From contig JAWAQK010000055.1 in the NCBI GenBank assembly GCA_038893995.1, positions 1 to 14,576 of the forward strand: a stretch of DNA of 14,576 nucleotides. Direction: 5' to 3'. This DNA is from Candidatus Thorarchaeota archaeon (GTDB lineage Archaea; Asgardarchaeota; Thorarchaeia; Thorarchaeales; Thorarchaeaceae). Each line of letters starts with the position of its first letter. Position 1 is the stretch's first letter. The notes below the pieces were generated by a model. It had not been told where the DNA came from. It did no database searches and saw nothing but the letters and a program-made list of their open reading frames with translations. The position numbers and the translations under genes are program-made. Shown piece after piece: positions 1 through 14,576 of the stretch.

Positions 1-1081
1 TCTGGTATAGCTTCGCATCCCGAAACAACTTCTCGAGAGGGTATTGGTCAATGTAGCCATATCCACCGTGTATCTGGACAGCCTCACTGGCCACCCACAT
101 TGCTGCATCAGTGGCAAAGGCCTTTGCCACACTCGCGGGAATGGTTGAATCCTCCCCTGAATCGGCCACCCATGCTGCTTTCATGTATAGCATCCGGGAA
201 GCCTCAATCTTGATGTACATATCAGCCAGCTTGAACTGGATGACCTGAAAATTCCGTATCTTCTCTCCAAATGCCTCACGGCGATTTACATACTCTCGAG
301 CGTACTCCATAGCAGCTCTAGCAACACCAGTGGCAAAGGCAGCTATAGCAGGCCTGGTGGCAGCGAAAGTCATCATGGCTATCCGAAAGCCCTCTCCCTC
401 CCGACCCAACAGATTCTCCTCTGGGACCTCGACGTCTCTGAGCATCACGGAAGATGTGACTGAGGCCCTGTGACCCATCTTGGCGACGGGACGTCCAGTC
501 TTCAGACCCGGCGAGTCTGCGTCCACAATGAAGGCACAGAGAGTCTTGTGACGCTTGGTGGGGTCAAGACTTGCGAAGACTACAAAAGTGTCAGCGTAGG
601 GAGCGTTCGTGATCCAGAACTTGCTCCCATTGAGTATGTAGTGGTCGCCAGACTTCCTCGCAGTTGTCTTGATGCCCGCTACATCAGAGCCCATTCCAGG
701 TTCAGAGCATGCGAAAGAAATGAACTTCAGGTCGGCAGTCAGAGGTCTGAGGTATTTCTCTTTCTGTTCGTGATTGCCTGCAATCAGAATCGGTTCCATC
801 CCAAGGCTGTTGACGTAGATGCTTGTCGTCATGCCGGCACATCCAGCGGCCAATTCCTCGACGACAATACACTGGTCGAGTAACCCCAGACCCGGCCCGC
901 CGTACTCCTTTGGGATCGCCAGGTTCATTAGCCCATGTTCCCAGCATTTCCGAATGATTGGCAGGGGAAACTCCCCGGTTGTATCGTAGTAGTGTGCATA
1001 CGGGATCATGTACTCCTGCGCGAAGCGCCGGGCCCTGTCACGAAGCCCAATCTGAGACTCTGTCAGTTTTAGATCAAACAC
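1..1081 (-). CDS. Acyl-CoA dehydrogenase (3' end runs off the window; not in ORF track)
   Basis: Manual translation from GTG at 1081 (SD GAGGT 7 nt upstream) is open to base 1: MFDLKLTESQ...FACSEPGMGSDVAG...LNGSKFWITNAP...KMGHRAS...RREAFGEKIRNFQVIQFKLADM...AVQIHGGYGYIDQYPLEKLFRDAKLYQ. All are hallmark ACAD motifs. Confidence 0.96.
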   Translation of the reverse strand, partial: MFDLKLTESQIGLRDRARRFAQEYMIPYAHYYDTTGEFPLPIIRKCWEHGLMNLAIPKEYGGPGLGLLDQCIVVEELAAGCAGMTTSIYVNSLGMEPILIAGNHEQKEKYLRPLTADLKFISFACSEPGMGSDVAGIKTTARKSGDHYILNGSKFWITNAPYADTFVVFASLDPTKRHKTLCAFIVDADSPGLKTGRPVAKMGHRASVTSSVMLRDVEVPEENLLGREGEGFRIAMMTFAATRPAIAAFATGVARAAMEYAREYVNRREAFGEKIRNFQVIQFKLADMYIKIEASRMLYMKAAWVADSGEDSTIPASVAKAFATDAAMWVASEAVQIHGGYGYIDQYPLEKLFRDAKLYQ

Positions 1082-1105
1082 CAAGCATACCTCAATCCCT
1101 CACTG

Positions 1106-1159
1106 CCTGCGGAGGGTTATCTCATTTGCGAATAGGACCGCAGACAACTTGACCGCAGG
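1106..1159. repeat. Short direct and inverted repeats in the intergenic spacer upstream of the acyl-CoA dehydrogenase
   Basis: GACCGCAG at 1136-1143 and 1151-1158 (direct, 15-bp period). CCTGCGG 1106-1112 and CCGCAGG 1153-1159 form a perfect 7-bp inverted pair. Confidence 0.5.
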
Positions 1160-3436
1160 TCATGACCTTGCTCCTTCTGCCAGAAGATGATTGACTACCT
1201 CGGGCAGGTTCCATTTCAACTCGATATCCAGTGCACCCTTTTCGGGACCAGGACATTTCCTGACACAGGTCCTGCAGGCCACACAAAGCCAGAGGTCTGT
1301 AGTGACCGTACCAAAGCCGGGTTTGTCACTATCGAAACGTACAGTTTCTGACGACTTGGTCACGGCGAGGCCTCGAACGACCCTATAGAGCAGGGCTTTG
1401 TTCGCGGGGAGCTTCTTGATATCATCCTCGGAAATCTCAAAGAATCTGGCAACATCCACCTCTGGCCTCAGGTATATGGCATCTTCGGGACAGGACAATT
1501 CACAGGTCTTGCATCCAATACACCTGCGGTAGTCCCACTTCACTGTTCCAAATCCAATCAGTGGGGCATAACCCATCATGTTGCGGTACTCATCCATGAC
1601 TGTGGGAACATCTATCTCCTTCAGATCGTTCACACTGATCTTCGGTCGTGTAGAGGGAATGTGTGAACGAGTCTGGTAGGCTGCAGCAACGGCCGACTTC
1701 AATGTGGGCTCGATGTCCGAGAGCAGGGCGTCTCCAATCACGACGCCACCAACCCTAGCCTTCGATAGACGGTCACGGGCCTTTGACACGGTTTCAAGAT
1801 CTGTGGCCAACTGGCCCACATTCTCAGGACCCAGACTGACGATGACCTTTCCTATGTTCGAAACCGCTGACATCATGGGGAAGGCCACCTCGCTGACAAG
1901 CTTGATCACAATCTCCGCTTCTGACGGCGTCCTTGGTACGTCATAGATCACGTATCCGTGTGACTCGCCGACAGTAGTGAGTAGCTCGTCCCTCTTCATC
2001 TTGAGTAGGTGTCTGAATACGCGGTCCTGAGGGATCTTGCTCAGTTGGGCCAATTCCTTAGCTGTCGAAGGCCCGTGTTCCCTTATCAAGACCAGAAGAA
2101 GACCGCGCTCAAACTCGTTTGACAGATAAGTGTCCAGTATCTTCTCGTATTGTTCCTTAGTCAGTTTCTGGCCATAGACGTTCGACCCGGATACAAGACT
2201 AGGACCCTTCTCCAGTGCCAGCTTGAGATTGAACTTTGCAAAGGCCTCAAGACCGGCAGATACCAAGAGTCTGAGATCTTCAGCAGATTCAGAAGACATA
2301 GACTTCATTGCGCTCTGCGTCACGAGGTCGGCCAGTTCACGAAGCTTGTTAACACTTGCAGACAGTGAGTTCTCGTCATACTGTCCCAATAACTGCATTC
2401 GCTCACAGATCACCTGAAGTTTCCGGACCATCTGATCCAGTGCCTGCCGCTCGGGCTCTTGTAGGGTCTTCTGAGCACTCTGTAGCTGTGACAACACCCG
2501 TCTTGTAACGAGTGTAGTCGACGGTATAGAGGAAAGGACTCGGCCAAACACCACAGCGCGATCCTCATGCCCAAGTATCTCGACCTCTCCCCGCTGAATC
2601 ATACTCAGGATCTCACGCTGCAATGTCTCGGGCGGAACTCTCAACAGGTTGGACATCTGACGAATAGTACGAGCGCCGATGCGGTCCAGTACAAAGAGCA
2701 TGATTGCTCTCCTGAGCTCGGTCAGCGCATTGTTCCTGACAAGTAGACCGAAGCGTTCGTCTGCGATACGACCCTCTCTTCGACCCCTCTTGATCTGTGC
2801 TGATGTACGCAGCAGAGGGCCATATCGGAGTCTAGCCGCCAGTTTCTGTATTCGTTCGAGTGCTTCCGACGGATCTGCTATGTCAGCTATCTCATGCAAC
2901 TCATCTACGATCCCGACAAGTTCTGTTTCGGAGTCTGCACCAACTCTCTTGGCACTGTTCTCAAGCTCTGACAACGAGCTCTCGATCTGCTGGATGACGC
3001 TCTCAGTTTCGGTCAAGATACGAGAGAGGTCAATCGACATCTCGGACACGGACTGAATGGCCTCGACGTTGTCCTTCTGTTCCAGCTGAAACTTCAGTAG
3101 TTCGATGAGTTTCTGAATGTGTGCGGATTGACTAACGGAAATAGCCTGCTCAAATCCCGCGATCGCCTTGGTCAGGAACTCCCTGTTCCTCAAATCATGT
3201 ACCAGGCCTGACCTCTCAATCGATCTGAGAAATTCCTCGTAGTAGAGATTGGGAAAGGCAACAATTTTGTCGATGAGTGGCTCAAGCGTCTTTCTCAGAG
3301 CCTCGACTTCTTGACTCACCCTAGCCGGAGAAACAGTCGATTCGTCCTTAAGACCACCGAGAAAGAGTATCATATCCATCAGTCTTCGGCGCTTGGGAGG
3401 GATTCCACGGACCTCGGTCTCTGTCCCTGTGATCAT
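1160..3436 (-). CDS. 758-aa helical/coiled-coil protein with two winged-helix-like modules and a C-terminal 2[4Fe-4S] ferredoxin domain
   Basis: CIGCKTCELSCP and CVACRTCVRKCP motifs, each preceded by GFGTV. Two HTH-like segments (GARTIRQMSNLLRVPPETLQREILSM; GPSTAKELAQLSKIPQDRVFRHLLKM). Start moved from 3454 to ATG 3436: GGAGGTG SD upstream and ATGA overlap with the upstream stop. Confidence 0.85.
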   Translation of the reverse strand: MITGTETEVRGIPPKRRRLMDMILFLGGLKDESTVSPARVSQEVEALRKTLEPLIDKIVAFPNLYYEEFLRSIERSGLVHDLRNREFLTKAIAGFEQAISVSQSAHIQKLIELLKFQLEQKDNVEAIQSVSEMSIDLSRILTETESVIQQIESSLSELENSAKRVGADSETELVGIVDELHEIADIADPSEALERIQKLAARLRYGPLLRTSAQIKRGRREGRIADERFGLLVRNNALTELRRAIMLFVLDRIGARTIRQMSNLLRVPPETLQREILSMIQRGEVEILGHEDRAVVFGRVLSSIPSTTLVTRRVLSQLQSAQKTLQEPERQALDQMVRKLQVICERMQLLGQYDENSLSASVNKLRELADLVTQSAMKSMSSESAEDLRLLVSAGLEAFAKFNLKLALEKGPSLVSGSNVYGQKLTKEQYEKILDTYLSNEFERGLLLVLIREHGPSTAKELAQLSKIPQDRVFRHLLKMKRDELLTTVGESHGYVIYDVPRTPSEAEIVIKLVSEVAFPMMSAVSNIGKVIVSLGPENVGQLATDLETVSKARDRLSKARVGGVVIGDALLSDIEPTLKSAVAAAYQTRSHIPSTRPKISVNDLKEIDVPTVMDEYRNMMGYAPLIGFGTVKWDYRRCIGCKTCELSCPEDAIYLRPEVDVARFFEISEDDIKKLPANKALLYRVVRGLAVTKSSETVRFDSDKPGFGTVTTDLWLCVACRTCVRKCPGPEKGALDIELKWNLPEVVNHLLAEGARS

Positions 3437-5589
3437 TGGACCACCTCCATCCACTTTCCAGCGGTCTGCTTGTGAACCGGTGTTGGGCCAAGTTCATGAC
3501 TCCGACGGACCATCTCCTTGACCGCATGGATAAACCGTTCTGGCTCTGCACTGAACATCCGGAACATCTCGACCCTATCTCCGTCCCAGCCAATCGCGTT
3601 GAGAAGGCTTTTCGCTACATCTACCTGTGCCTGGGCAATCTCGTTTCCAGTCCCTCCGTAATGGCACCTATCTTTCTCGCACGCTGCAACCATGACAGTG
3701 CTTGCACCCTGTTCGAAGGCCTTTAGGATGTCAACAAGACTGACCCTGCCGGCACAGGGTACCGGAACGAGCCTCACGTTGTCAGGATACTCCATCCTGC
3801 GGATTCCGACTATGTCAATTGTTGATACAGAACACTCCTCGCAGTAGAAGCAAAGGGTCTTTGGATACTCGGCTCCAGCATTATTAAGCGTCGCCTCAAT
3901 CTGGGCCCAGAGTTGCTCATTTGACAGGAAATTCAACTGGGTCGCTCCGGAGGGACACAGACTCTGGCACACACCACATGCGTGACAATTCATGATATCG
4001 ATAGAAGCACGGGAGACGATCTTATCCTCGTCCGATTCCGCGTCAGATTTTTCAACCATCAGGGGAACGCCCCGGGGACAGTGTTGGGCACAGAGACTAC
4101 ATCCAACACACTCGTCAACATTGAGATTGGCCCCACGTGCCAGATGCTCAATGTGACCACCCTGTAATTCATTATGAATCAACAGTGCTGCGGCGTGTGC
4201 ATCAGTTACGGCCTCGAAGGAGAATTGGGGTCTGGTGATAGCACCCACGGCAACAACGCCACGTCTGCGTGTTTCGTTTCTTCGGAGCTTTCCATACAGC
4301 TCTTGCACATGACCATCCCTGTCAATCGAGAATCCGAGGGTCTGTGATAGTTCTTCCAGTCCCTCGGCGGGAAGTATTGCAGATGACAGGACCACCAGGT
4401 CGGGATGAGCATCGAAGTATCGGTCTAATAGTGAGTCATAGATTCGTACTACGAGTCTATTGTTCTCTCGCCAGACCTGACTGATCCGGCCTCGAATGTA
4501 GTCCACGCCCTTCTCGCGTGACTCCTTGTAGATCATCTCACTCTCAAAGGGGACCCTTATGTCCATGTAGACTATCCGGACCCGTGCTTCGGGTACCCGT
4601 TTCTTGATCTCGAGTGCGTTGTCAATCGCAAATGTGCAACACAGCTTGCTACAGTCGGATTTGTGATCCTGGGACCTGCTGCCTACGCACTGAACCATGA
4701 TGACTTCTCTAGGTTTAGAGCCCGTAGATGGACATACGAGATCTCCTTCTGTCATCATTGTAGCAAGCTCGAGCTGGGTGATCACATCCTCGTCACGGCC
4801 ATACATATACTCGTCCATCATGGTTGGCTTGAACTCCCTGAATCCCGTTGCGAGGACAACAGCTGATGTGGAGAGAGAGCCATCTTCCCCGTTCTCACCG
4901 ACGTAGTGCACCGAAAACGCGCCCATTTCACCCTCAAAGTACTTCACACGGGTTCCCAGCATCACGTTGATTGATTTGGACGCCTGAAGTTGTGACAGCT
5001 TGGGTGACAGTATGTCCCTCCCAGAAAGACCCGTAGGAGCGACCACAGGTAGTTGCAGAAGATGACCTCCCAGCTCACGACCCTTCTCGATGATCGTAAC
5101 GCTGTATCCAAGTCTTGTCAGTGCAAGGGCTGTTTCTATACCAGCAATGCCACCACCAATCACTGTCACATGTCGAGGAACTTCCTTCGTCTTGATAGAG
5201 AGAGGCTCAGACAGTGCACAGGCCGCCACGGTCCCTCGGATCATGTCCAGGGACTTGTCTGTACTGGACGTGATGTCAGGATGCACCCATGCCGAGTGCT
5301 CGCGAATGTTCACATAGTAGACTTGAGTTGAGTCTAGAGACTTGGAGGTGAGATACTGCTCGATCCTGGGTCGAATCTTCTGACTGGTACAGGCGGCAAT
5401 AACAAGTCGTGGATTCTCGGCCACCAGCTCACCGATTCGCGAGAGACCGGTCTCCTGACAAAGTGAATCATGAAGGTCTACACTGCCTGCAATACCATCT
5501 TTTCTGATCGCTGTCCTCAGAGAGTCGAAGTCAAGCCTTAGAGTGTTGCCGCAAGTACACAGGATCACGTTAGGTCTAGCATCTGTCAC
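3433..5589 (-). CDS. hdrA: Heterodisulfide reductase subunit A-like flavoprotein fused to a C-terminal MvhD/FlpD [2Fe-2S] domain (QmoB-like architecture)
   Basis: N-terminal HdrA domain (CTCG, LC, AACT, NIREH-WVH), GGGIAG Rossmann motif, QCVGSR...CSKLCC cluster motif, two CxxCxxCxxxCP motifs, then an MvhD signature (FYCEEC...EYPDNVRLVPVPCAGRV...ILKAFEQGA...AACEKDRCHY). GTG start overlaps the upstream stop (GTGA). Confidence 0.93.
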   Translation of the reverse strand: MTDARPNVILCTCGNTLRLDFDSLRTAIRKDGIAGSVDLHDSLCQETGLSRIGELVAENPRLVIAACTSQKIRPRIEQYLTSKSLDSTQVYYVNIREHSAWVHPDITSSTDKSLDMIRGTVAACALSEPLSIKTKEVPRHVTVIGGGIAGIETALALTRLGYSVTIIEKGRELGGHLLQLPVVAPTGLSGRDILSPKLSQLQASKSINVMLGTRVKYFEGEMGAFSVHYVGENGEDGSLSTSAVVLATGFREFKPTMMDEYMYGRDEDVITQLELATMMTEGDLVCPSTGSKPREVIMVQCVGSRSQDHKSDCSKLCCTFAIDNALEIKKRVPEARVRIVYMDIRVPFESEMIYKESREKGVDYIRGRISQVWRENNRLVVRIYDSLLDRYFDAHPDLVVLSSAILPAEGLEELSQTLGFSIDRDGHVQELYGKLRRNETRRRGVVAVGAITRPQFSFEAVTDAHAAALLIHNELQGGHIEHLARGANLNVDECVGCSLCAQHCPRGVPLMVEKSDAESDEDKIVSRASIDIMNCHACGVCQSLCPSGATQLNFLSNEQLWAQIEATLNNAGAEYPKTLCFYCEECSVSTIDIVGIRRMEYPDNVRLVPVPCAGRVSLVDILKAFEQGASTVMVAACEKDRCHYGGTGNEIAQAQVDVAKSLLNAIGWDGDRVEMFRMFSAEPERFIHAVKEMVRRSHELGPTPVHKQTAGKWMEVVQ

Positions 5590-6848
5590 TGAGAACTACC
5601 ACCTCTGCTCTGAAGAATCCTGCTTACAACCGCCCTCGCCTGGGTCACACTCTCAGGAACTTCGGCAGGGCCGAGCGCGGTTCCGCAGGCGTAGATGCGA
5701 TCACCAACGACAAACTCATCGAGTTGAGTCGCATCCTTTCGGGAAACGAATCCGCTTGCCGATCTGAGGCCCAGCATGTTCACTAGTTCGGATGTCCCCT
5801 CTGATGGCTCGAGCGCTGATGACAGGACCAAGAGGTCTGTATGTATTTTCATGAACTTGTTGAGTAGCGAGTCGTAGACCACAACCAGCACACCGCCACC
5901 CTCCGCCGGAGAAACAGAATGAACCCGACCTCGGACAAAGTCGGCCCCGTCTAGCCTCGCCTGCAGGTAGTATCGCTCGTGTCGTTCGTATGTACGAATG
6001 TCCATATACACTACAGTGACTCTGGAGCACCCTCGCTCTGCCAGAGCTATGTGGGCATGCTTGAGTGCGAAGACACAGCATATCTTGGAACAGTAGGGGT
6101 AGTATCGTTCATCCCTACTACCTACACACTGCACCATCACCATCTTCTGGACTGGTGAACCATCAGATGGTCTTCGCAGGGCCCCTCCAGTAGGACCGTT
6201 GGGATCTAGAAGACGCGCAAGCTCGAGCTGTGTCACAACATCGGGAATCCGGCCATATCCGTACTCATCCATGTTCTTAGGCTGCATCTCGTGATAGCCT
6301 GTTGCAATGACTATGTCCGACACGGTGACCGTGTCTTCCCGTGGTTTCGCAGACAGGTCGATGGCCCTCGTGGGACACTCCTTCTCAGCCTCTCGTGCAG
6401 CCCCATCATTCAGCTCTGGACGATAGACGACTGACTGGGGTTGACACTGCGGGTAAGGCAGGACAAATGCTCTAGACTTCTGAATACAGAGACCACACAT
6501 GGTACATTTCTTGGGATCAACATAGATGGGACCAGACCGCAGTCTCACCTCGAACTCGTCACGCTTCCTGCTGACCGACACGACTACTGTGTCTGTCCTC
6601 AGATCTATGTTGGGTTGATCAACCATGGCGCTCCTATAGAAACACTTTCTGATTCCTGGTCTCCATCGGTTGCCCTCGAAGCAGTAGAAACAGTCGTCTG
6701 TGGGGAAGGCCTTGTAGAGATCTAGTGCGTTGCCTCCCGCCGAAGGCTGCCTGTCAATCAGGATAGTCTTGACACCGGAGTCTGCAAGTTCAACAGCGGC
6801 GGTCAGTCCAGCCACACCTGCTCCAATAATGAGCACGGGGTTGGTCAC
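5586..6848 (-). CDS. hdrA: Short HdrA-like flavoprotein (FAD/thioredoxin-reductase fold with reduced inserted ferredoxin; QmoA-like size)
   Basis: GAGVAG motif, FPTDDCFYC (cf. HdrA FPTLDCxxC), EYGYGRIPDVVTQLE, QCVGSRDE...CSKICC, YMDIRT, ACGTALGP..VPESVTQA. Lacks the HdrA N-terminal domain and C-terminal ferredoxin. Confidence 0.92.
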   Translation of the reverse strand: MTNPVLIIGAGVAGLTAAVELADSGVKTILIDRQPSAGGNALDLYKAFPTDDCFYCFEGNRWRPGIRKCFYRSAMVDQPNIDLRTDTVVVSVSRKRDEFEVRLRSGPIYVDPKKCTMCGLCIQKSRAFVLPYPQCQPQSVVYRPELNDGAAREAEKECPTRAIDLSAKPREDTVTVSDIVIATGYHEMQPKNMDEYGYGRIPDVVTQLELARLLDPNGPTGGALRRPSDGSPVQKMVMVQCVGSRDERYYPYCSKICCVFALKHAHIALAERGCSRVTVVYMDIRTYERHERYYLQARLDGADFVRGRVHSVSPAEGGGVLVVVYDSLLNKFMKIHTDLLVLSSALEPSEGTSELVNMLGLRSASGFVSRKDATQLDEFVVGDRIYACGTALGPAEVPESVTQARAVVSRILQSRGGSSQ

Positions 6849-6860
6849 TTCTCATCCCTC

Positions 6861-7727
6861 TCATCCGGTAAGATGCTCAAGGATCGGTACAGCGGAGACT
6901 CTGTTCATACCGAGACCGACCTGGTTCTCGTCAAGACCCATGGCCAGCCCCAGAATCTGAGGATAGAACAGGACTGGCAGGTTGTACTCCTCACCGTAGC
7001 TTTGTTTGAGCCCGAGCTGCTGAAGGTCCAACTGGTTGCCACATGCAGGACAGACCACTGTTGCAAACTGTGCGCCGTATTCCTTCATGGATCTTATCTT
7101 GTCTCGTGCGAGCCTGATTGCAAGGGGCTCATTCACGGGCAACACTGTGGCTCCACAGCACTGCTTCCACAACGGGTAGTCCACAACCCGAGCCCCGGTG
7201 ACCTCGACCAGTTCGCGAAGTATCTCAGGCCTGAACTCGGTAACATCCTGGGGGCGAAGTAAGTGGCAACCAAAGTGGATCGCAATGCCCACACCATCGA
7301 GGGGTCGTGCTATCTTCTTCCGTATCTCATCAAGACCAACATCCGTATAGATCGCCTCGATTATGTGACGGACCCGTATCTTGCCCTCCACCCTCAGGCC
7401 TTCACCTGCAAGCTCCTCGTTGACAGATCTCATGTCTGACTCACTGTGCTTCAGATGGTGGAGAACATCCTTCAAAGAACCAAAGCAACCATTGCAGGGA
7501 GTCACAATGTCTTTGCCGTTCTTCTCTGCGATGGCCAGTGTCCTTGCATTGACTCTCAACCACCCATTGTAGTCCAGTGCCCGCAGATTTGGGCTTCCGC
7601 AACAGGCCACACCTTCCATGTACTCCAGATCAACGCCGAGAATGCGGGCCACTGCCAACATGGCCGCCTCGTAATTGGGATAGTTGGCTGGGACACTGCA
7701 ACCCATATACAGATTATACGTGGGCAT
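6861..7727 (-). CDS. hdrB: Heterodisulfide reductase subunit B (two CCG domains)
   Basis: YMGC...CCG...TPCNGC and HFGCHLLRP...CCGA...VCPAC..QLD motifs, C-terminal PVLFYPQILGLAMG. ATG directly abuts the hdrC stop, with a GGAGGTG SD. Confidence 0.96.
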   Translation of the reverse strand: MPTYNLYMGCSVPANYPNYEAAMLAVARILGVDLEYMEGVACCGSPNLRALDYNGWLRVNARTLAIAEKNGKDIVTPCNGCFGSLKDVLHHLKHSESDMRSVNEELAGEGLRVEGKIRVRHIIEAIYTDVGLDEIRKKIARPLDGVGIAIHFGCHLLRPQDVTEFRPEILRELVEVTGARVVDYPLWKQCCGATVLPVNEPLAIRLARDKIRSMKEYGAQFATVVCPACGNQLDLQQLGLKQSYGEEYNLPVLFYPQILGLAMGLDENQVGLGMNRVSAVPILEHLTG

Positions 7728-8270
7728 CTAAACACCTCCCCTTGAGATCCGCCCTGCCCTAGACTGTATGAGAATTCTCTTCACATGCTCAACCGAGAGA
7801 CCGGGCACAGAGGGCTCAAGCCCAAGATCTTCTCTCTCCCAGTCTGCAGTCACTGTATACAGCTGACCCTTCTCGACAAGCTCTCGTGCAAGCTGTGCAA
7901 CATTCTCAGGTATGAACCCGGCCTCTGCAGCGAGGTTCTTGCAATCGAAGAGTATGTCTGTGATACGAACTTTCTGAGGGCATCTCTCCTGGCATTGGAA
8001 GCAGGTCAGACACTCCCAGATCTCTCTTGAAGAGAGTACCTCGTTTCTCATTCCAAGTATTATCATTCGGATAAGCTGATGAGGCTTGTAGAGCCACTGG
8101 TTGGCAATGGGACAGGCTGCTGTGCACGTCGAGCATGCAAAACATGCACTCAGTTCTTCGCCGTTAGGCATGTTACGTATTTGATCACGGAAATCGGGAT
8201 CCAACTGCGACATGTCAATCGGTTCAACCAACGTCTGTGGAGGCGTCGGTTTCTCGGCGGTCTCGGTCAT
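7728..8270 (-). CDS. hdrC: Heterodisulfide reductase subunit C (2x[4Fe-4S])
   Basis: CFACSTCTAACP and IWECLTCFQCQERCP motifs, PHQLIRMIILG; 180 aa, directly upstream of hdrB. Confidence 0.95.
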   Translation of the reverse strand: MTETAEKPTPPQTLVEPIDMSQLDPDFRDQIRNMPNGEELSACFACSTCTAACPIANQWLYKPHQLIRMIILGMRNEVLSSREIWECLTCFQCQERCPQKVRITDILFDCKNLAAEAGFIPENVAQLARELVEKGQLYTVTADWEREDLGLEPSVPGLSVEHVKRILIQSRAGRISRGGV

Positions 8271-8327
8271 TCAACTGGCACCACTGGGATTTACACGGTT
8301 ATACAATCCTGTGCGGGAATCTCGCCC

Positions 8328-8343
8328 ATATTAAAAGCTTGCA
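8328..8343 (-). promoter_or_regulatory. Putative archaeal BRE/TATA promoter of the hdr operon
   Basis: Minus strand TGCAAGC-TTTTAATAT about 58 nt upstream of the hdrC ATG, in a GC-rich background. Confidence 0.55.
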
Positions 8344-8488
8344 GAATGAGCTGACTTCGGTACTGCGGCATGTCGGAGTCTTGATTCAGAGAAGATGGCT
8401 GTTGACTAGCTGGAACAGTCATTGGAGCCCTGTGCAAGGGTCTTCAGAACTTCAGAGAGACCAGAGTGCCCGAGTTGCAAGGCGTCAC

Positions 8489-8496
8489 TTTTAAAG
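8489..8496 (+). promoter_or_regulatory. Putative TATA box of the Lsm/SmAP3 gene
   Basis: TTTTAAAG about 47 nt upstream of GTG 8543; SD GAAGGTGA at 8530-8537. Confidence 0.5.
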
Positions 8497-8542
8497 CGGA
8501 TGCGACGCCAACGGACTATAATCCAAGTTGAAGGTGAGACTT

Positions 8543-8980
8543 GTGTCAGACGCAACGGCCATGAGGGCCTTTAACAGAGAGCTTGCATCCGTCGTAGGTA
8601 GCACGGTCGTGGTCAGCACAACTGCGGGAAAGACGTATACAGGTACGGTAAAGGGGATAGATCAGAGCACTCTGAGCATTGTCCTTTCCGATGTCACCTG
8701 TCTTGAGGACGACTCCAAGTTCCCAAGGATATTCATATACGGGCATAGCATTGTGTCGTTCTCTCTCTCTGAGAAGGAAGTGAGTCTAGAAGGGCTTGCA
8801 AAAGAACTTGAGAAGACATTTCCGCCAGGAGGAGTCCGCTACTTCCCAGATGTGCAGGCCATTGTGGTCATGAACAAGATACGAATAACGCCTCAGGGAA
8901 TTGACGGCTCAGGTCCGCTCTATGAACGTGTTGCTGAGATAGCCAAGAAGTGGATGGAGGAGCACGGCATCACATTTTGA
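8543..8980 (+). CDS. Lsm/Sm-like RNA-binding protein with C-terminal extension (SmAP3 type, Lsm + Lsm_C)
   Basis: Sm1-like FNRELASVVGSTVVVSTTAGKTYTGTVKGID..LSIVLSD, Sm2-like IFIYGHSIVSF, and C-domain LAKELEKTFP...GIDGSGPLYERV typical of ~145-aa SmAP3. Start set at GTG 8543 by SD spacing (ORF track uses TTG 8528). Confidence 0.88.
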   Translation: MSDATAMRAFNRELASVVGSTVVVSTTAGKTYTGTVKGIDQSTLSIVLSDVTCLEDDSKFPRIFIYGHSIVSFSLSEKEVSLEGLAKELEKTFPPGGVRYFPDVQAIVVMNKIRITPQGIDGSGPLYERVAEIAKKWMEEHGITF

Positions 8981-9038
8981 ATGCCCGAGAGGATGGGTTC
9001 AATGCTCCGCCCAGAGCTGACACGGTCATGTCTCTCGA

Positions 9039-10304
9039 TCACAATAGGCGTTTGAGGCCCAGTTCGTCGAGGCTGTATTTCTCAGCCTTAGAGCGTGCAG
9101 TGCTACGACTAGGCACCAACCTGTCAACGGGTTTCAATCGGTCTTCCCAAGAGCCCCCGGTACTGACAGGGAACTTTCCGACAGGTCGAACATCAACCGA
9201 CCGTCTTGTTTCGACTTGACCTATGGGACCTGAGAGCAGACCCAGCTCTGCCAGCCGTTTCTGACCTATCGTTGAAACTACGGTATCTTCCTTTACTCTC
9301 GGGAGCAGCTGTGGACTCCTGACGCCTGTCAGAATCAGCATGACCCGGATGGTACCAGTCAGTCGCGGATCGATTCGTGCACCCCAGATCACCTGTGCAT
9401 CGGAGCTCAGTCGTTTCGAGATCAGTTCCCCAATCTGATTCGCCTCTGACAGTGACATATCAGGACCACCTGTGATGTGAATCAGCGAACCGGTTGCGCC
9501 TCCCCACTCTACTTCTAACAACGGGCTGTTCAGTGCGTTGTCTATGGCCTCTTGGACTCGGTTCGTCCCAGTGGCTTCTCCAAGCCCAACCAGTGCCACG
9601 CCGCCATTGCAGATGATTGACCTTACATCTGCATAGTCCAGATTTATGAGACTGGGCATAGTGATGGTCTCGGTAATACCTTTCACCATGGCGGCGAGGA
9701 CCTCATCCGCAACCCCAAAGGCTTCTTCAAGAGGGAGGTCCGGTACCAGTTCGAGAAGTTTCTGGTTATCAATGACCACGACCGTGTCCGCATTCTCCTG
9801 TAGCTTCGCGAGACCTACTTTTGCCTTGTCGATGCGTGCCCTCTCTAGTGCGAAGGGCATCGTGACAACTCCGACGACAATCGCATCATTACGTTTTGCA
9901 ATCTCTGCAACCACCGGGGCACTGCCTGTTCCAGTGCCACCACCCATACCGCATGCAATGAAGACAAGGTCAGCATCACGCAGTAGCTCAGCAATCTGGG
10001 GTGCTGACTCCTCGGCTGCAGCCTGTCCCACATGAGGATATCCCCCTGCACCCAGTCCTCGCGTAATTGTTTCTCCGATGAGGAGTTTTCGGTGAGCTGT
10101 CGTTACTGCCAGATGTTGCCGATCTGTGTTTATTGCGATGCACTCGGCTCCTTGGACACCTATTGTCATCAGCCGCTTGATTGTATTGTTTCCCGCACCT
10201 CCGCATCCAACAACGACGATTCGGGCCTGACCTAGATCGCGTCCCGATGTTGTACCTTGCTCGACTCTCTCATGCTCCCTGGCAGCGTCAATAAATGTCT
10301 TCAA
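9039..10304 (-). CDS. ftsZ: Cell division protein FtsZ (archaeal FtsZ2-type) with long C-terminal tail
   Basis: [15 protein letters not shown] (FtsZ2-like TDxQHL), GLGAGG, tubulin signature GGGTGTG, T7 loop [11 protein letters not shown] start with a GAGGAGG SD inside the upstream gene. Confidence 0.98.
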
Positions 10305-10310
10305 ACAGAT

Positions 10311-10484
10311 CTATTCCTCCTCGAGGTTGACATTCAGGAACAGCTTCTCCCAAAGCTCTCGTTTCAACAGATCTCTTATTGCGATCCTGATTGTTTCCGA
10401 GCGAGTTGGGTAGGTACCTCTGCTTACAAGTTGGTCTATGTCGTTGACTATCTTCTCTGGGAGATGTACTGCAATTAGGCGCAT
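10311..10484 (-). CDS. cdrS: Ribbon-helix-helix (CopG/Arc/MetJ) regulator, CdrS-like, 57 aa (below ORF-track cutoff)
   Basis: Manual translation MRLIAVHLPEKIVNDIDQLVSRGTYPTRSETIRIAIRDLLKRELWEKLFLNVNLEEE*. Contains the RHH motif (LV..G.YP.RSE.IR.AIRDLL) and lies 6 nt upstream of ftsZ, as in the conserved archaeal cdrS-ftsZ2 locus. Confidence 0.9.
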   Translation of the reverse strand: MRLIAVHLPEKIVNDIDQLVSRGTYPTRSETIRIAIRDLLKRELWEKLFLNVNLEEE

Positions 10485-10569
10485 TGTCTGTCCTCTAGTC
10501 GAAGGAGGAGGTACGGACTTTTGAATGTCGATATTACCAGCGCATGCCGGTCAGGAAGAGAGGACGCGG

Positions 10570-10601
10570 GAGCTGTAGGGAGCATAATGCTCCCCCAGCT
10601 C
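10570..10601 (-). terminator. GC-rich stem-loop immediately after the rpl2 stop (putative terminator/processing hairpin)
   Basis: Minus strand GAGCTG-G-GGGAGCA-TTA-TGCTCCC-TA-CAGCTC (13 Watson-Crick pairs), followed by pyrimidine-rich TCCTCTCTTCCT. Confidence 0.6.
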
Positions 10602-10603
10602 GG

Positions 10604-11323
10604 CTACCTTCGACGCCCTGTTCTTCTGGCTGCAATGTTACCGACCTTACGGCCAGGTGGAGCATTTCGACTGATGGTAGATGGTTTGCTCGGCGACTGA
10701 TGAGAGCCGCCTCCATGCGGATGCGAGGCTGCGTTCATCGCACTACCACGGACAACGGGCCACTTGCGAGCCTTCATCTTGGTGTGATGGTAGACTTTGC
10801 CCGCCTTCAGGAAGGGTTTCTCAGGCCTGCCACCGCCCGCAACTACGCCAATGGTAGCCCTACAACGTGGACTGAACTCCTTGTGGGCACCACTCGGCAA
10901 CTTCACGACGGCCCTGGTCTTGTCGACTGAAACGATCGTAGCATACAGTCCCGATGACCGTACGAACTTCCCTCCATCCCCAGGGCTGCCCTCGATGTTG
11001 TATATCGGCACACCCTCGGGAATGTGTTCAAGCATCAGAGTGTTGCCAGTGAAAACTAGGGCATTCTCACCGCACTCGATCCTGCTGCCCACCTGGATTC
11101 CCTCTGGGGCCACCATGAAGTGGGTTCCAGACTCACCCTCGTACTTGACCTCTGCGAGAGGTGCACCCCTTCCCGTTTCATGGTGCAGGCCAACTACCTC
11201 ACCAACATACGTCTTGCCGGGAGCCCACTTGGGATGTTTGGCGGGTGCAATCCTTCGATGACCAACATTCTGCCACTGGGAGGTTCCTCTTCCCTTACGC
11301 TGAACAAGTAGTGACTTTCCCAT
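10604..11323 (-). CDS. rpl2: 50S ribosomal protein uL2
   Basis: MGKSLLVQRKGRG, GDGGKFVRSSG, CRATIGVVAGGGR, WPVVRGSAMNAASHPHGGG, PPGRKVGNIAARRTGRR. Confidence 0.99.
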   Translation of the reverse strand: MGKSLLVQRKGRGTSQWQNVGHRRIAPAKHPKWAPGKTYVGEVVGLHHETGRGAPLAEVKYEGESGTHFMVAPEGIQVGSRIECGENALVFTGNTLMLEHIPEGVPIYNIEGSPGDGGKFVRSSGLYATIVSVDKTRAVVKLPSGAHKEFSPRCRATIGVVAGGGRPEKPFLKAGKVYHHTKMKARKWPVVRGSAMNAASHPHGGGSHQSPSKPSTISRNAPPGRKVGNIAARRTGRRR

Positions 11324-11336
11324 TCACTGCACCTCC

Positions 11337-11600
11337 TTAGAATATTCCCAGCTTTGTGGCGACTTCTGAGGCGCTGTACTCAGGGGCAAGTCGCACGAAT
11401 GCCTTCTTTCGTCCATCTGGCATCACGAGGGTATTGACCTTTTCAACAACTACGTCGTACAGGCTCTCAACCGCCCACTTGATCTCGTTCTTGTTGGCGT
11501 TTCGAGCAACGTAGAACGTCAGCCTGTTCTGCGTTTCGACTGCCTCCAGACTGGCCTCTGTGACTACGGGCATGACTATCACCTCGTTCGGATTCCTCAT
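11337..11600 (-). CDS. rpl23: 50S ribosomal protein uL23
   Basis: PVVTEAS...NRLTFYV...ANKNEIKWAVE...VEKVNTL...GRKKAFVRL. Start set to ATG 11600 (GGAGGTG SD, ATGA overlap with the rpl4 stop), 87 aa. Confidence 0.98.
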   Translation of the reverse strand: MRNPNEVIVMPVVTEASLEAVETQNRLTFYVARNANKNEIKWAVESLYDVVVEKVNTLVMPDGRKKAFVRLAPEYSASEVATKLGIF

Positions 11601-12400
11601 CTTGAAACACCTCCCATGAAGAGAAGGTCCTTGCCAAGTCGTTCCATCGCGGACTTGGTCCACACAGCCAGTCTTCCGGGATGTGTGCCAGGGGCCAGTA
11701 GTTCAGCATTCAGGGCGTGCACTTCGGTGACATCAACACCGGGGATGTTACGTGCTGCCAGACCGATGCCACGGTCCTTCTCGACGACTATGAGCACGGA
11801 CTTGGGGACCTTGAGCCCGCGTCCACGCACCTTTCCCTTTCCAGCCCTAATGGATCTACCATTCCGGGCACGCTCCAGATCCGGACCAAGTCCGAGGGCG
11901 GAAGCAATCTCCTCTAGCTTACTGGTTGTTTCGACGGTTTCCAGCTCGTCCGAAACAACAAGAGGAAGCTGGGGAACCTTGTCAATCTTATGGCCACGTG
12001 CACTGACCAGTTCCCTGTTTGCAGTAGCAGCGATTGCAGAGCATATTGCAAGGCGTCGTTCCTTCCGGTTTATCCTCTCCAGAAGGACCTTTCGCGCCTC
12101 TGGGGGATGTGCTTCTCGACCACCCACTGTGCCCGGTGCAAACCCACCTCTGTTTGCGGCTCTGGTACCAGATCCCTTTATTCGTGGTATCCTCGACCGA
12201 CCGTGTCCAGTCTGCCAGCTCTCTGCAGTGTTGCGCTTGCCTGCAAGCTCGTCCACGCCATGAGGCTGGTATCTTGCAGAGCGAAGTGCCAGTACTGCTC
12301 TCTTGATCACATCAGGACGAAACGGCGTACTGAACTGTGGTGGAAGTTCAATGGATGGACCCACCTTCCCATTCAAAGAGTATGTCTTGACGTTGACCAT
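11597..12400 (-). CDS. rpl4: 50S ribosomal protein uL4
   Basis: FRPDVIKRAV, AESWQTGHGRSRIPR, ERINRKERRLAICSAIAAT, RAGKGKVRGR, LLAPGTHPGRLAVWT. Confidence 0.99.
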   Translation of the reverse strand: MVNVKTYSLNGKVGPSIELPPQFSTPFRPDVIKRAVLALRSARYQPHGVDELAGKRNTAESWQTGHGRSRIPRIKGSGTRAANRGGFAPGTVGGREAHPPEARKVLLERINRKERRLAICSAIAATANRELVSARGHKIDKVPQLPLVVSDELETVETTSKLEEIASALGLGPDLERARNGRSIRAGKGKVRGRGLKVPKSVLIVVEKDRGIGLAARNIPGVDVTEVHALNAELLAPGTHPGRLAVWTKSAMERLGKDLLFMGGVSR

Positions 12401-12412
12401 CGCTCGTATCCC

Positions 12413-13420
12413 CTATTGTTTCGATGAAGTGCTGATGTAGCTCACCTGTGGAGCTAGTTCAGTCAAGTGTCGTCCAGGTCTGATGGCAAGCCTTAGCCGG
12501 ACTGGTCTCTTGACAGCGCCTGGTACCGATCCCTTGAGCATGACGTAGTCGCCACGTACCACACCGTAGTTGACGAAACCCCCACGTGGGGTAATCTCCT
12601 CACCACGTTCACCAATCTTGAGAACCTTGCAGTTGAACACCGTTCTGGTGTGAAAACCGGTCTGGCCGGCTCTTGGAACCGTGTACCGGATGTTTGTAGG
12701 AGTCCATGCACCCAGACACCCGACACCACGCTTGGTCTTTCGGGCCTTGTGTTGAAGAACACTCACGCCCCATCGACGGACAGGACCCTGAATCCCGTGA
12801 CCCTTTGTGACTGCGACGACGTCAACCATCATGCCCTCGTTCAGGACATCCGCAACCCGGAGATCCTTGCCCAGTATGCTCTTTGCATACTCGAAGGCCG
12901 CGGCGACGTTGGGGCCTCCTACCTTGTACTCGGTGATGTCTGGTTTCTTCTTAGGTACCGCGGCAAGGCGCGGCTGAGTATGGACCAGCATCCGGATCTG
13001 AGAGAAGGTTCCTAGCCTTGCTTCAAATTCCTTCAGCTTGGCTGCATGATCGTAATCCTTAGGCAACTGCAACGTACTACGGAGGTCTTCGGAGAGAGTT
13101 TCAGCAAGAACCTCTGTTGCGAGTCTTAACCCGTAAGGCGTTGATTCGTAGCCTCTTATTGAGAACGGACGAAGAGGGGGTACGTCGATGACCGTTACTG
13201 GAATCACAGTTTCCTGACCCTTGAATGGACTCCGTGGATTGTCCACCGCAGCCACCACATGGGTCATTCCTGCCTTGTACCCAACAAAACCCATTAGTTT
13301 TGCAGCCGAGCCACCATACTCAGGCCAGTTCCTTATCCTTGGTACAAACTTGGAAGCTCTGCCTCGCGGTAAGTAGGCCAGACTTCCGTGCTTAGGTGCA
13401 TACTTCTTTCTGTGTGCCAT
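12413..13420 (-). CDS. rpl3: 50S ribosomal protein uL3
   Basis: PKHGSLAYLPRGRA, GYKAGMTH, VDVVAVTKGHGIQGPVRRWG, VPRAGQTGFHTRT, LKGSVPGAVKRPVRLR. Start at ATG 13420 (GTGGTG SD upstream), 335 aa. Confidence 0.99.
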   Translation of the reverse strand: MAHRKKYAPKHGSLAYLPRGRASKFVPRIRNWPEYGGSAAKLMGFVGYKAGMTHVVAAVDNPRSPFKGQETVIPVTVIDVPPLRPFSIRGYESTPYGLRLATEVLAETLSEDLRSTLQLPKDYDHAAKLKEFEARLGTFSQIRMLVHTQPRLAAVPKKKPDITEYKVGGPNVAAAFEYAKSILGKDLRVADVLNEGMMVDVVAVTKGHGIQGPVRRWGVSVLQHKARKTKRGVGCLGAWTPTNIRYTVPRAGQTGFHTRTVFNCKVLKIGERGEEITPRGGFVNYGVVRGDYVMLKGSVPGAVKRPVRLRLAIRPGRHLTELAPQVSYISTSSKQ

Positions 13421-13438
13421 TGGAAACACCACTTGTTT

Positions 13439-13472
13439 GTACCGAATGGCCTGTGGACTGGGCTATTCGTAC
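13439..13472 (-). promoter_or_regulatory. Stem-loop in the predicted rpl3 5' leader (candidate ribosomal-protein leader)
   Basis: mRNA GUAC-GAAU-A-GCC[CAGUCCACA]GGC-C-AUUC-G-GUAC: 11 pairs with one bulge and one mismatch, between the TATA box and the SD. Confidence 0.45.
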
Positions 13473-13497
13473 TGGAACGTCGCAACTCTTGCCACCG

Positions 13498-13510
13498 CTT
13501 TTTAAGCTTC
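13498..13510 (-). promoter_or_regulatory. Putative BRE/TATA promoter of the rpl3 operon
   Basis: Minus strand GAAGC-TTAAAAAG about 78 nt upstream of the rpl3 ATG. Confidence 0.6.
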
Positions 13511-13526
13511 CCATTCAGCAGTCGAG

Positions 13527-14378
13527 TTATGTCACCGGATGCTCATAGAAGCCCCGTCTGGTCACCTGACGGCCGAATGATGAGTTGAATAGTGCCAGAC
13601 TGATTGTGATGGCCTCCTCGAGTCGGACAGTTTCAGTACCCTGCCCCTCTACCGTGTTGATCCAGATATCGAGAACTGAACGCAGCTCGTCGAACTTTCG
13701 CTCAAAAATCTCACCCACACCTTTGTCAGGTCCACCAAACACCATCACAATACCTCTGGACACAACCTCCCTCAGATACGCTTCAGACTCGCGGAAGGGC
13801 CTACCCCTTCTTGAGAGAGCAATCCGAACAGCAGAAGTTTCTTGCAGGCGGCCTATGAGATCATGCTCAGTTTCAACCTCGTAGCCCAGATAGACATCTT
13901 GTTCCGAATAGTCTACCTCGGACAGCCTGGTCTCAGGAGCAGTTGACACGACCCTAAAGAGAGTGGGTCTCTGGTCGCTGACAGGACGATCGTATGGTAC
14001 TGGATCTGCTAGGCCTATGTCAACACTCCCGCGTCCAGCTGGAAGACCCCAACGGAGGTCTCCGTTGGAGAGTGCCTCACTGGCCAGGGGATGACCACGT
14101 GTCCTCAGCGGAGGAATCAGACCCGCATACCTCAATACGTCAGTCACTGGATAGAGCCTCTTTCGAAGATATTGTGGTGTGTTGGCATATTCGAGAATCA
14201 GGGTCAGTAGATCCGAATCGCGAGAACGCTTCGACTGAGTGGGGCCCGTCTGGTATACCACAATTCGATCGACCTTGAACACTGATGCAGCACGTGCTAT
14301 TGTACCGGCACGGACCGTCTTCTCTCGCAGATCTCTGCAATTTGTGAGTGAGGTATCGGGAATACACATCTCCAGCAA
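13527..14378 (-). CDS. SPOUT-family RNA methyltransferase (MTH1/C9orf114-like, DUF171)
   Basis: IPDT....DLREKT..AG.IARAASVFKVDRIVVY, LEYANTPQYLRK, AGLIPPLR, VFGGP, INTVEGQGTETVRLEEAI. This family commonly sits upstream of rpl3 in archaea. TTG start with GAGGGA SD. Confidence 0.93.
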   Translation of the reverse strand: MLEMCIPDTSLTNCRDLREKTVRAGTIARAASVFKVDRIVVYQTGPTQSKRSRDSDLLTLILEYANTPQYLRKRLYPVTDVLRYAGLIPPLRTRGHPLASEALSNGDLRWGLPAGRGSVDIGLADPVPYDRPVSDQRPTLFRVVSTAPETRLSEVDYSEQDVYLGYEVETEHDLIGRLQETSAVRIALSRRGRPFRESEAYLREVVSRGIVMVFGGPDKGVGEIFERKFDELRSVLDIWINTVEGQGTETVRLEEAITISLALFNSSFGRQVTRRGFYEHPVT

Positions 14379-14387
14379 GCGGATCCC

Positions 14388-14576
14388 TCAGAGATCTAGA
14401 GTGAACCAGATTGTTGTTCGGTCAGACTTCATCTCAATCTTTAGATTCGCATATGTCATTGCCTTGACCTCCGTTTTGGTGACATGACGTTCATGGTCTA
14501 TGGATTCGCCCCACACATTGGCCTTCAGGTACCAACCCTCGTGATCCTCTGCAATCTCAACCACCTCAAATCTTGA
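14388..14576 (-). CDS. Archease (C-terminal 62 aa; 5' end outside the window)
   Basis: Manual translation ...WYLKANVWGESIDHERHVTKTEVKAMTYANLKIEMKSDRTTIWFTLDL*: WGE..D...H...EVKAxTY motif and terminal D-hydrophobic residue of archease. Confidence 0.9.
   Translation of the reverse strand, partial: SRFEVVEIAEDHEGWYLKANVWGESIDHERHVTKTEVKAMTYANLKIEMKSDRTTIWFTLDL

Follow-up and report, generated by a model that had tools for sequence, protein, structure and literature searches.

Among the closest described relatives of the system treated here, the Qmo complex of sulfate reducers combines a short HdrA-like protein with a long HdrA-like flavoprotein that carries a ferredoxin domain and a C-terminal MvhD-like domain (PMC3333476). 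Asgard archaea encode many Hdr paralogues, which are highly expressed, and papers on their metabolism report several HdrA copies; the heterodisulfide has not been identified in these organisms, and neither the disulfide substrate nor the donors have been established (PMC11291895). Here we analyze an Hdr-type operon from a Candidatus Thorarchaeota archaeon. The window is the entire 14,576-bp contig JAWAQK010000055.1 of assembly GCA_038893995.1 (contig C55 of genome G000 in our survey). The genome of 2.33 Mb was obtained from hot-spring metagenomes (five DNA data sets are listed) and is 91% complete, and an absence from it is to be read with this figure and not as proof. The operon encodes HdrC, HdrB, two HdrA paralogues, one of them fused to MvhD, and an iron-sulfur protein of 758 amino acids that we call X; a gene for an acyl-CoA dehydrogenase (ACAD) follows. 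We propose, with a probability of roughly 0.65, that the five products form a soluble flavin/Fe-S complex of the Hdr type in which X takes the place of the donor module and is docked on MvhD, and that the ACAD is independent of it. Our search of the literature returned no paper on this operon or on X.

The six open reading frames (ORFs) are co-oriented on the minus strand, to which all coordinates of the operon refer: hdrC (7728-8270, 180 amino acids), hdrB (6861-7727, 288 amino acids), a short, QmoA-like hdrA (hdrA', 5586-6848, 420 amino acids), a long, QmoB-like hdrA fused to mvhD (hdrA''::mvhD, 3433-5589, 718 amino acids), X (1160-3436, 758 amino acids from its ATG; a GTG start at 3454 would give 764) and the ACAD gene (2-1084). 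The genes are tightly joined: hdrC and hdrB meet with 0 nt between them, hdrB and hdrA' are 12 nt apart, hdrA' overlaps hdrA''::mvhD in a GTGA, and hdrA''::mvhD overlaps X in an ATGA. Between X and the ACAD gene there is a gap of 75-78 nt. A box resembling a transcription factor B recognition element (BRE) and TATA element (AAGCTTTTAATAT, 8328-8340; core CTTTTAATAT, 8328-8337) precedes hdrC by about 60 nt, and a box at the same distance from hdrC is kept as AAACTTTTAATA in 11 related loci, so that each locus examined in the family has one. Scans for sigma-70 promoters and intrinsic terminators gave output at chance level; such models do not apply to archaea. The order hdrC-hdrB-hdrA'-hdrA''::mvhD-X is invariant in 13 loci of the Thorarchaeota-type family to which the window belongs. 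In three other families, of Helarchaeota type, all 7 loci contain the same five genes as hdrA'-hdrA''::mvhD-X-hdrC-hdrB, preceded by a second HdrA/MvhD set. Since the same set is found in two orders across deep lineages, there is good evidence that the five genes work together. Judged by gene order and junctions, the operon is one of five genes and not of six. The preliminary description of this DNA had proposed the layout, the tight junctions and a single TATA box, all of which are confirmed by the ORF coordinates and by the box kept in relatives; its reading that mvhA/mvhG, fdh, flx and aprAB are missing also holds for the gene content of the 14,576-bp window, and the five-gene set can now be traced in four Asgard families.

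The Hdr core encoded by the operon is complete in its motifs. HdrB has two CCG domains (PF02754 matches twice, E 7.5e-32; TIGR03288 scores 262 bits), and both CCG motifs are whole (C10..CC42/43..C78xxC81 and C154..CC190/191..C226xxC229), each of the form CX31-39CCX35-36CXXC that binds a non-cubane cluster. HdrC has two [4Fe-4S] motifs (Cys 43/46/49/53 and 87/90/93/97) and a TIGR03290 score of 102 bits, below the cut-off. Because the CCG motifs of HdrB and the Cys4 motifs of HdrC are all kept, the catalytic thiol/disulfide site looks intact. The domains of HdrA, which in a full-length protein would stand on one chain, are split over the copies of 420 and 718 amino acids, and NCBIfam HdrA models give 262-467 bits against cut-offs of 1100-1400. 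The short copy aligns to HdrA residues 146-561 of 9sfi_A; it has the flavin adenine dinucleotide (FAD)-binding, thioredoxin reductase (TrxR)-like fold, the FPTDDCFYC motif, part of the inserted ferredoxin and QCVGSRD..CSKICC, and is devoid of the N-terminal and C-terminal domains. The long copy, aligned to 8rvu_a, has the N-terminal domain, the TrxR-fold flavin domain, a C-terminal 2x[4Fe-4S] ferredoxin and the fused MvhD; it is devoid of the inserted ferredoxin and reads VAPTGLSG where FPTxDC is expected. Its [2Fe-2S] MvhD domain (3436-3864, residues 576-718; PF02662 E 1e-34, with the FlpD domain at residues 579-701) has the invariant Cys 583/586/612/637/642. Taken together, the two paralogues are complementary halves, and a heterodimer of them probably replaces the HdrA homodimer. 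Of additional note, a cysteine of the N-terminal domain of the long HdrA, common in relatives and not invariant, is a serine in the window (NIREHSAWVH vs NIREHCAWVH in most relatives; residues 97-99, window 5290-5298).

The fifth protein, X, consists of a conserved N-terminal motif, coiled-coil helices, a first winged helix (2534-2728, residues 237-301, taken from the model), an NVYG motif with a second winged helix, a linker and a split 2x[4Fe-4S] ferredoxin. Its most conserved stretch is the module of a helix, GxNVYGxKL and winged helix 2 (1937-2275, residues 388-500). The ferredoxin domain (1163-1549, residues 630-758) is split by an insert of about 65 residues between its Cys4 motifs, within which lies the segment predicted to contact MvhD (1313-1459, residues 660-708). 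Eight cysteines are invariant (639/642/645/649 and 718/721/724/728), with no other conserved cysteine in the protein, and the insert has its own conserved residues (F666, P677, Y684, T686, L690, A691, K694, P695 and G707-G709). An AlphaFold2 model of X (predicted local distance difference test score, pLDDT, 70; predicted template modeling score, pTM, 0.37) has long helices at residues 37-184, the winged helix at 237-301 and further helices, with the second winged helix (about 440-500) ahead of the ferredoxin domain. The best-conserved stretches (13-36, 388-425 and 596-656) have low model confidence, as expected if these segments become ordered on binding. A Foldseek search of the PDB with this model gave no match at E <= 0.001, a wider fold search returned only generic helical bundles and winged helices (best Z about 10, four-helix bundles), and a profile search of PDB sequences matched the ferredoxin motif only; a counterpart of whole X among solved structures was not found by these searches.

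X is common in its own lineage and rare beyond it. Proteins closely related to X, each about 750 amino acids long, number more than 200, and all the named ones are Asgard (Thor-, Loki-, Sif-, Hod- and Promethearchaeota). Of the 400 genomes that we surveyed in the phylum, 85 belong to the window's family, and 84 of these have X; full-length homologues of 21-25% identity occur in 7 genomes of three other families, labeled Helarchaeota or Lokiarchaeota; it was not found in the remaining families of the survey (e.g., 0/135 genomes in the largest). An exhaustive HMMER search with X residues 1-630 matched only 46 clusters among 1.84 billion representatives, so the X family is narrow and uncurated. 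One locus differs in its surroundings: in L032 (G368:C1:1299800-1319700), X and an ACAD are present, only the MvhD end of hdrA'' (120-200 amino acids) precedes X, and orthologues of hdrC, hdrB and hdrA' were not found nearby. This may reflect decay of the operon or a scaffold join in a single-contig genome that is 77% complete, and we draw no conclusion from it.

We next consider where X would attach to the Hdr core. A complex prediction of X residues 380-758 with the MvhD domain (HdrA'' residues 572-718) gave an interaction score from aligned errors (ipSAE) of 0.73 (runs 0.72, 0.76 and 0.73) vs 0.00 for the best of 3 controls, with contact agreement of at least 94% and partner pLDDT of at least 77. 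Of 80 solved complexes 58 attain the mark that it passes, and of 110 mismatched pairs 2 do. In the predicted interface, the ferredoxin insert of X (660-708) faces MvhD loops 617-626, 650-668 and 704-714 and adjoins the cluster-binding Cys612, with conserved residues on both sides. Relatives of the X module are found next to HdrA genes or joined to MvhD. Proteins of about 115 amino acids that correspond to X 388-500 are encoded directly upstream of HdrA-like genes (L041, L042), and the module also adjoins a gene for an FrhB-like Fe-S flavoprotein (L040). The NVYG and winged-helix module is fused behind MvhD in the proteins P0161, in which only the MvhD part has matches in the PDB (5odc_D and relatives), and P0164, which belongs to a bacterial hdrCBA-mvhD-metVF cluster (L038). 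Structural neighbors of the middle region of X in the ESM Atlas are fusions of FlpD with a helix-turn-helix (HTH) and small HTH proteins. The window's genome has a second, paralogous Hdr cluster (C47:7883-16062, L044). It starts with a 918-amino-acid fusion of an HdrA N-terminal domain with a GltD-like NAD(P)H oxidoreductase and a 133-amino-acid ORF, and continues with hdrC, hdrB, hdrA (437 amino acids), hdrA (585 amino acids), mvhD (159 amino acids) and a 110-amino-acid winged-helix ORF; of 9,797 ORFs, it is this one that, X itself aside, best matches the two winged-helix profiles of X (E 5e-4). X probably plugs into the MvhD adaptor as an electron entry point. It had been suggested at the outset that this is a distinct, hydrogenase-less Hdr-type unit with the 758-amino-acid Fe-S protein as the partner of MvhD; translational coupling, co-occurrence in four families, a complex prediction that passes its controls and module kin fused to MvhD now back this suggestion.

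What the winged helices of X do bears on a different view of the protein. X could be a redox-sensing transcription factor whose winged helices bind DNA and whose Fe-S clusters sense redox state, regulating hdr or other redox genes. Such a role would suit the basic residues in both recognition helices, the weak MarR/TrmB/ArsR-type matches in residues 442-510 (winged-helix family scores stay below threshold: MarR_2 23.8 bits vs 27, TrmB 22.5 vs 25.6) and the superposition of winged helix 1 on Z-alpha and ArsR-type winged helices (Z 8.6-8.8, root-mean-square deviation 1.1-2.2 Å). However, X is coupled through an ATGA to hdrA''::mvhD, holds a constant place within the operon in four families and is predicted to make a specific contact with MvhD, and its module is fused to MvhD or lies beside HdrA genes in both bacteria and archaea. 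Moreover, in a cryo-electron microscopy preprint on class II benzoyl-CoA reductase, the winged helix-turn-helix of the MvhD homologue BamF docks the Fe-S input subunit BamI (doi 10.64898/2026.04.10.717634), so a protein-docking role of winged helices has structural precedent. The long form of X described below, in which an NAD(P)H oxidoreductase takes the place of winged helix 1, likewise fits an enzyme subunit and not a regulator. We therefore regard a regulator as very improbable, and by analogy with BamF we infer that the winged helices of X are protein-docking elements and not DNA binders.

The long form of X gives a clue to the direction from which electrons could arrive. In 7 genomes of the family (G317, G318, G341, G347-349 and G352), X has 972-980 amino acids: a GltD/NfnB-like module (Fer4_20 and Pyr_redox_2) stands in for residues ~160-418, i.e., winged helix 1 and the helices on either side of it, and the first 150 residues are kept, as is all of the protein from NVYG to the C-terminus. 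This module is 46% identical to that of the C47 HdrA fusion. Two such genes (L036:9245-12187 and L037:8877-11801) bear NCBI/JGI names of an FAD-dependent oxidoreductase or a glutamate synthase beta-like protein. Because an NAD(P)H-oxidizing flavoprotein has been grafted into the long form, X would lie on the electron-input branch of the complex.

Starting from the observed gene sets, motifs, phyletic pattern, domain swap and module homology, we propose the following scheme for the five-gene complex. The HdrA'/HdrA'' heterodimer would form the core and carry the bifurcating flavin(s). HdrBC would reduce, or in reverse oxidize, a disulfide, with the thiol/disulfide couple as one redox partner, and the C-terminal ferredoxin domain of HdrA'' would serve as the low-potential branch. 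X would occupy the position that MvhAG, FdhAB or FlxABC hold in known complexes, and the fused MvhD, with the ferredoxin insert of X docked on it, would supply the third branch; electrons would then be exchanged among the clusters of X, the [2Fe-2S] cluster of MvhD and the HdrA flavin, with X as the side of entry that we infer. In organisms with the long form, the third branch would begin at NAD(P)H. In the short form, X is limited to two [4Fe-4S] clusters and is without a flavin, so that a separately encoded partner would have to deliver or take electrons, perhaps held by the winged helices of X or by its conserved N-terminal motif.

Another possibility is that the complex does not bifurcate at all and is a ferredoxin:disulfide (or polysulfide) reductase, to which X would add an extra ferredoxin-like wire and a scaffold, with no third partner. 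A short-form X that has its two clusters and neither flavin nor catalytic domain would be enough for this, and none of the loci of the family contains a linked candidate electron-donor gene: MvhAG, FdhAB, FlxABC and FrhB modules are all missing from the window and from 13 related loci. Yet two HdrA-type FAD domains, MvhD and a separate C-terminal ferredoxin have been kept, which is the three-branch layout of bifurcating Hdr, and the NAD(P)H module of the long form implies a mid-potential two-electron donor at the X branch. A simple reductase is thus distinctly improbable.

The sole [NiFe] hydrogenase found in G000 is group-3b-like and most similar to NAD(P)-dependent sulfhydrogenases; the other PF00374 match is NuoD. 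Since the only [NiFe] match is sulfhydrogenase-like, an Mvh-type hydrogenase appears to be missing from the 91%-complete genome even in trans. Neither McrA (PF02249) nor ComA (PF02679) was found in G000, so the substrate is probably not the heterodisulfide of coenzymes M and B (CoM-S-S-CoB), and the organism is, as far as this genome shows, a non-methanogen, as the preliminary description had supposed. We also considered a link to sulfate or adenosine 5'-phosphosulfate (APS), prompted by a Helarchaeota-type locus with ATP sulfurylase and sulfatases; it was dropped, as Sat was not found in G000. Genes for sulfatases, a phosphodiesterase and a HpaB/4-hydroxybutyryl-CoA-dehydratase-like protein lie beside the Helarchaeota-type set (L025:12645-18403 and L027:394-5090), to which L027 adds the ATP sulfurylase and L025 two proteins of 377 amino acids with a C-terminal ferredoxin domain.

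The gene that follows X requires a separate discussion. The sequenced part of the ACAD, 361 of ~399 amino acids before the contig end cuts it, contains the N-terminal, middle and C-terminal ACAD domains (PF02771, PF02770 and PF00441) and is Bcd/AcrC-like, with scores below equivalog cut-offs. An acyl-CoA link to the operon had been suggested from this neighborhood. If it were real, the operon would comprise six genes and the ACAD would be the client of the complex, with X and MvhD, or else the QmoA-like HdrA, connecting the acyl-CoA/enoyl-CoA couple to ferredoxin and to the thiol/disulfide couple; for instance, electrons of acyl-CoA and of reduced ferredoxin would be confurcated onto a disulfide. 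The ACAD gene is co-oriented and lies 75-165 nt after X in 13 of the 14 family loci where the sequence goes on (in G312 and G381, which have no ACAD match, the contigs stop right after X and are uninformative), and in the window genome it stayed adjacent although the upstream synteny was rearranged. A flavoenzyme client would have parallels in QmoA, which is reported to bind AprAB (PMC3333476), and in acetogen MetFV-HdrABC-MvhD clusters, where the flavoenzyme is encoded after mvhD (L038). However, the unrelated PCNA-primase-GINS genes are as constant before hdrC as the ACAD is after X; because the whole neighborhood is syntenic in the family, adjacency carries little weight. A TATA-like box of the ACTTATAC type precedes the ACAD gene by 40-55 nt in 9 of 12 relatives, which suggests that the ACAD has its own promoter.

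The two genes are also found apart. In G323, a genome of the same family that is ~95% complete, the gene after the intact five-gene operon encodes a DUF438-hemerythrin-PAS protein, and a search at E 1e-110 gave no ACAD orthologue; likewise, none of the 7 Helarchaeota-type loci has an ACAD within 6-9 kb. Conversely, ACAD orthologues (53-57% identity) occur in 249 of the 400 Asgard genomes, including 104 of the 135 genomes of the family that has no X. Operon and ACAD thus each occur in the absence of the other. The usual electron partner of ACADs is the electron-transfer flavoprotein EtfAB, and with a potential of about -10 mV the enoyl-CoA/acyl-CoA couple is too positive for a mid-potential donor that enters Hdr through MvhD. 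The genome does encode this usual partner, an EtfB and an EtfA that begins with a two-cluster ferredoxin domain, a type seen in bifurcating Etf complexes (C32:16111-18234, L043); the pair is on another contig and linked neither to an ACAD nor to a CCG protein. We found no paper that ties Hdr directly to an ACAD. From these observations a six-gene system is unlikely, and the ACAD is probably an independent neighbor whose link to the operon is coincidental. A bolder form of the idea would make X a modular docking hub whose winged-helix modules recruit various separately encoded dehydrogenases to one bifurcating HdrA/MvhD core, with the ACAD as the client in Thorarchaeota and acyl-CoA oxidation (~-10 mV) pulled by co-oxidation of reduced ferredoxin onto a disulfide. 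This is a long shot; if it were true, it would be an ETF-independent, Hdr-based answer to the energetics of syntrophic oxidation of fatty acids or amino acids in the archaea most closely related to eukaryotes.

Several points weigh against a five-gene complex with X docked on MvhD and an independent ACAD. The ACAD is adjacent in nearly all members of the family, and in the window itself the GC-rich spacer between X and the ACAD gene has neither the TATA-like box of the relatives nor a T-run, that is, no clear promoter or terminator, so that transcription may run on from the operon into the ACAD gene here. For X as a single chain the model is of mediocre quality, with a poor ferredoxin domain, and the predicted X-MvhD contact is a matter of model confidence, built on our own alignments. 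The basic recognition helices have been kept, and DNA binding by the winged helices is possible. Finally, bifurcation is assumed by analogy.

In the remainder of the window (8271-14576), upstream of the operon, there are a divergent Lsm gene, FtsZ, an L3-L4-L23-L2 ribosomal protein operon and an RNA methyltransferase gene. Nearly all relatives have PCNA-primase-GINS at the place of the Lsm, FtsZ and ribosomal genes, which indicates, on the basis of gene order, a local rearrangement in which the hdr block and the ACAD stayed together. In several relatives a lone MvhD (FlpD) gene of 136-153 amino acids lies 2-5 kb past X, often near cupin and HD-domain genes (L004:16402-16812, L006:15872-16282, L050:13737-14150 and L037:2672-3133).

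The operon defines a type of Hdr that is independent of hydrogenase, has an asymmetric HdrA pair and uses a dedicated subunit that we found in Thor- and Helarchaeota-type lineages only. The winged-helix module of this subunit, which is uncurated, widely accompanies MvhD and HdrA in both archaea and bacteria. The system could reveal how Asgard archaea balance ferredoxin, NAD(P)H and thiols, and the long form of X offers a tractable assay, in which NAD(P)H would drive the reduction of ferredoxin together with a disulfide.

Compared with Bcd/EtfAB-type ACAD systems, the window's ACAD has all three domains and the genome has EtfAB, but the gene does not lie next to etfAB. Several features recur in the methanogen complexes MvhADG-HdrABC and FdhAB-MvhD-HdrABC (5odc, 8rvu, 7bkb and 9sfi): HdrB with two CCG domains, HdrC with two clusters, the TrxR-fold HdrA with QCVGSRD..CC and the [2Fe-2S] adaptor MvhD are all shared, and the HdrA proteins match the methanogen structures with E values of 1e-81 to 1e-64. 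In contrast to these complexes, HdrA in the window is divided between two complementary paralogues, one of which bears MvhD, neither a hydrogenase nor a formate dehydrogenase is linked, and X has no counterpart that we found in the methanogen Hdr structures. Moorella-type MetFV-HdrABC-MvhD, FlxABCD-HdrABC and NfnAB/GltD modules share the principle of a hydrogenase-free Hdr in which MvhD joins HdrA to another redox enzyme, and the hdrCBA-mvhD-metVF cluster of L038 encodes in addition an extra Fer4-MvhD-winged-helix protein; unlike them, the short-form X of the window is devoid of a MetF, Flx or GltD-like module. In BamF and other long MvhD proteins (FlpD with a winged helix), here compared by description in the case of BamF, a winged-helix module is likewise tied to the MvhD adaptor, whereas in our operon FlpD belongs to HdrA'' and the winged helices, two in number, to X. 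The pairing of a short and a long HdrA with a soluble HdrCB recalls, in layout only, QmoAB and the qmoAB-hdrCB genes of Gram-positive sulfate reducers. It differs in that neither aprBA nor sat is linked and no QmoC is encoded (the hdrC product, at 180 amino acids, is without an HdrE-like part and scores 54 bits with the qmoC model vs a cut-off of 300), and X is absent from Qmo systems. The operon is a real and conserved feature, a variant of the Hdr/Qmo type with a previously undescribed subunit.

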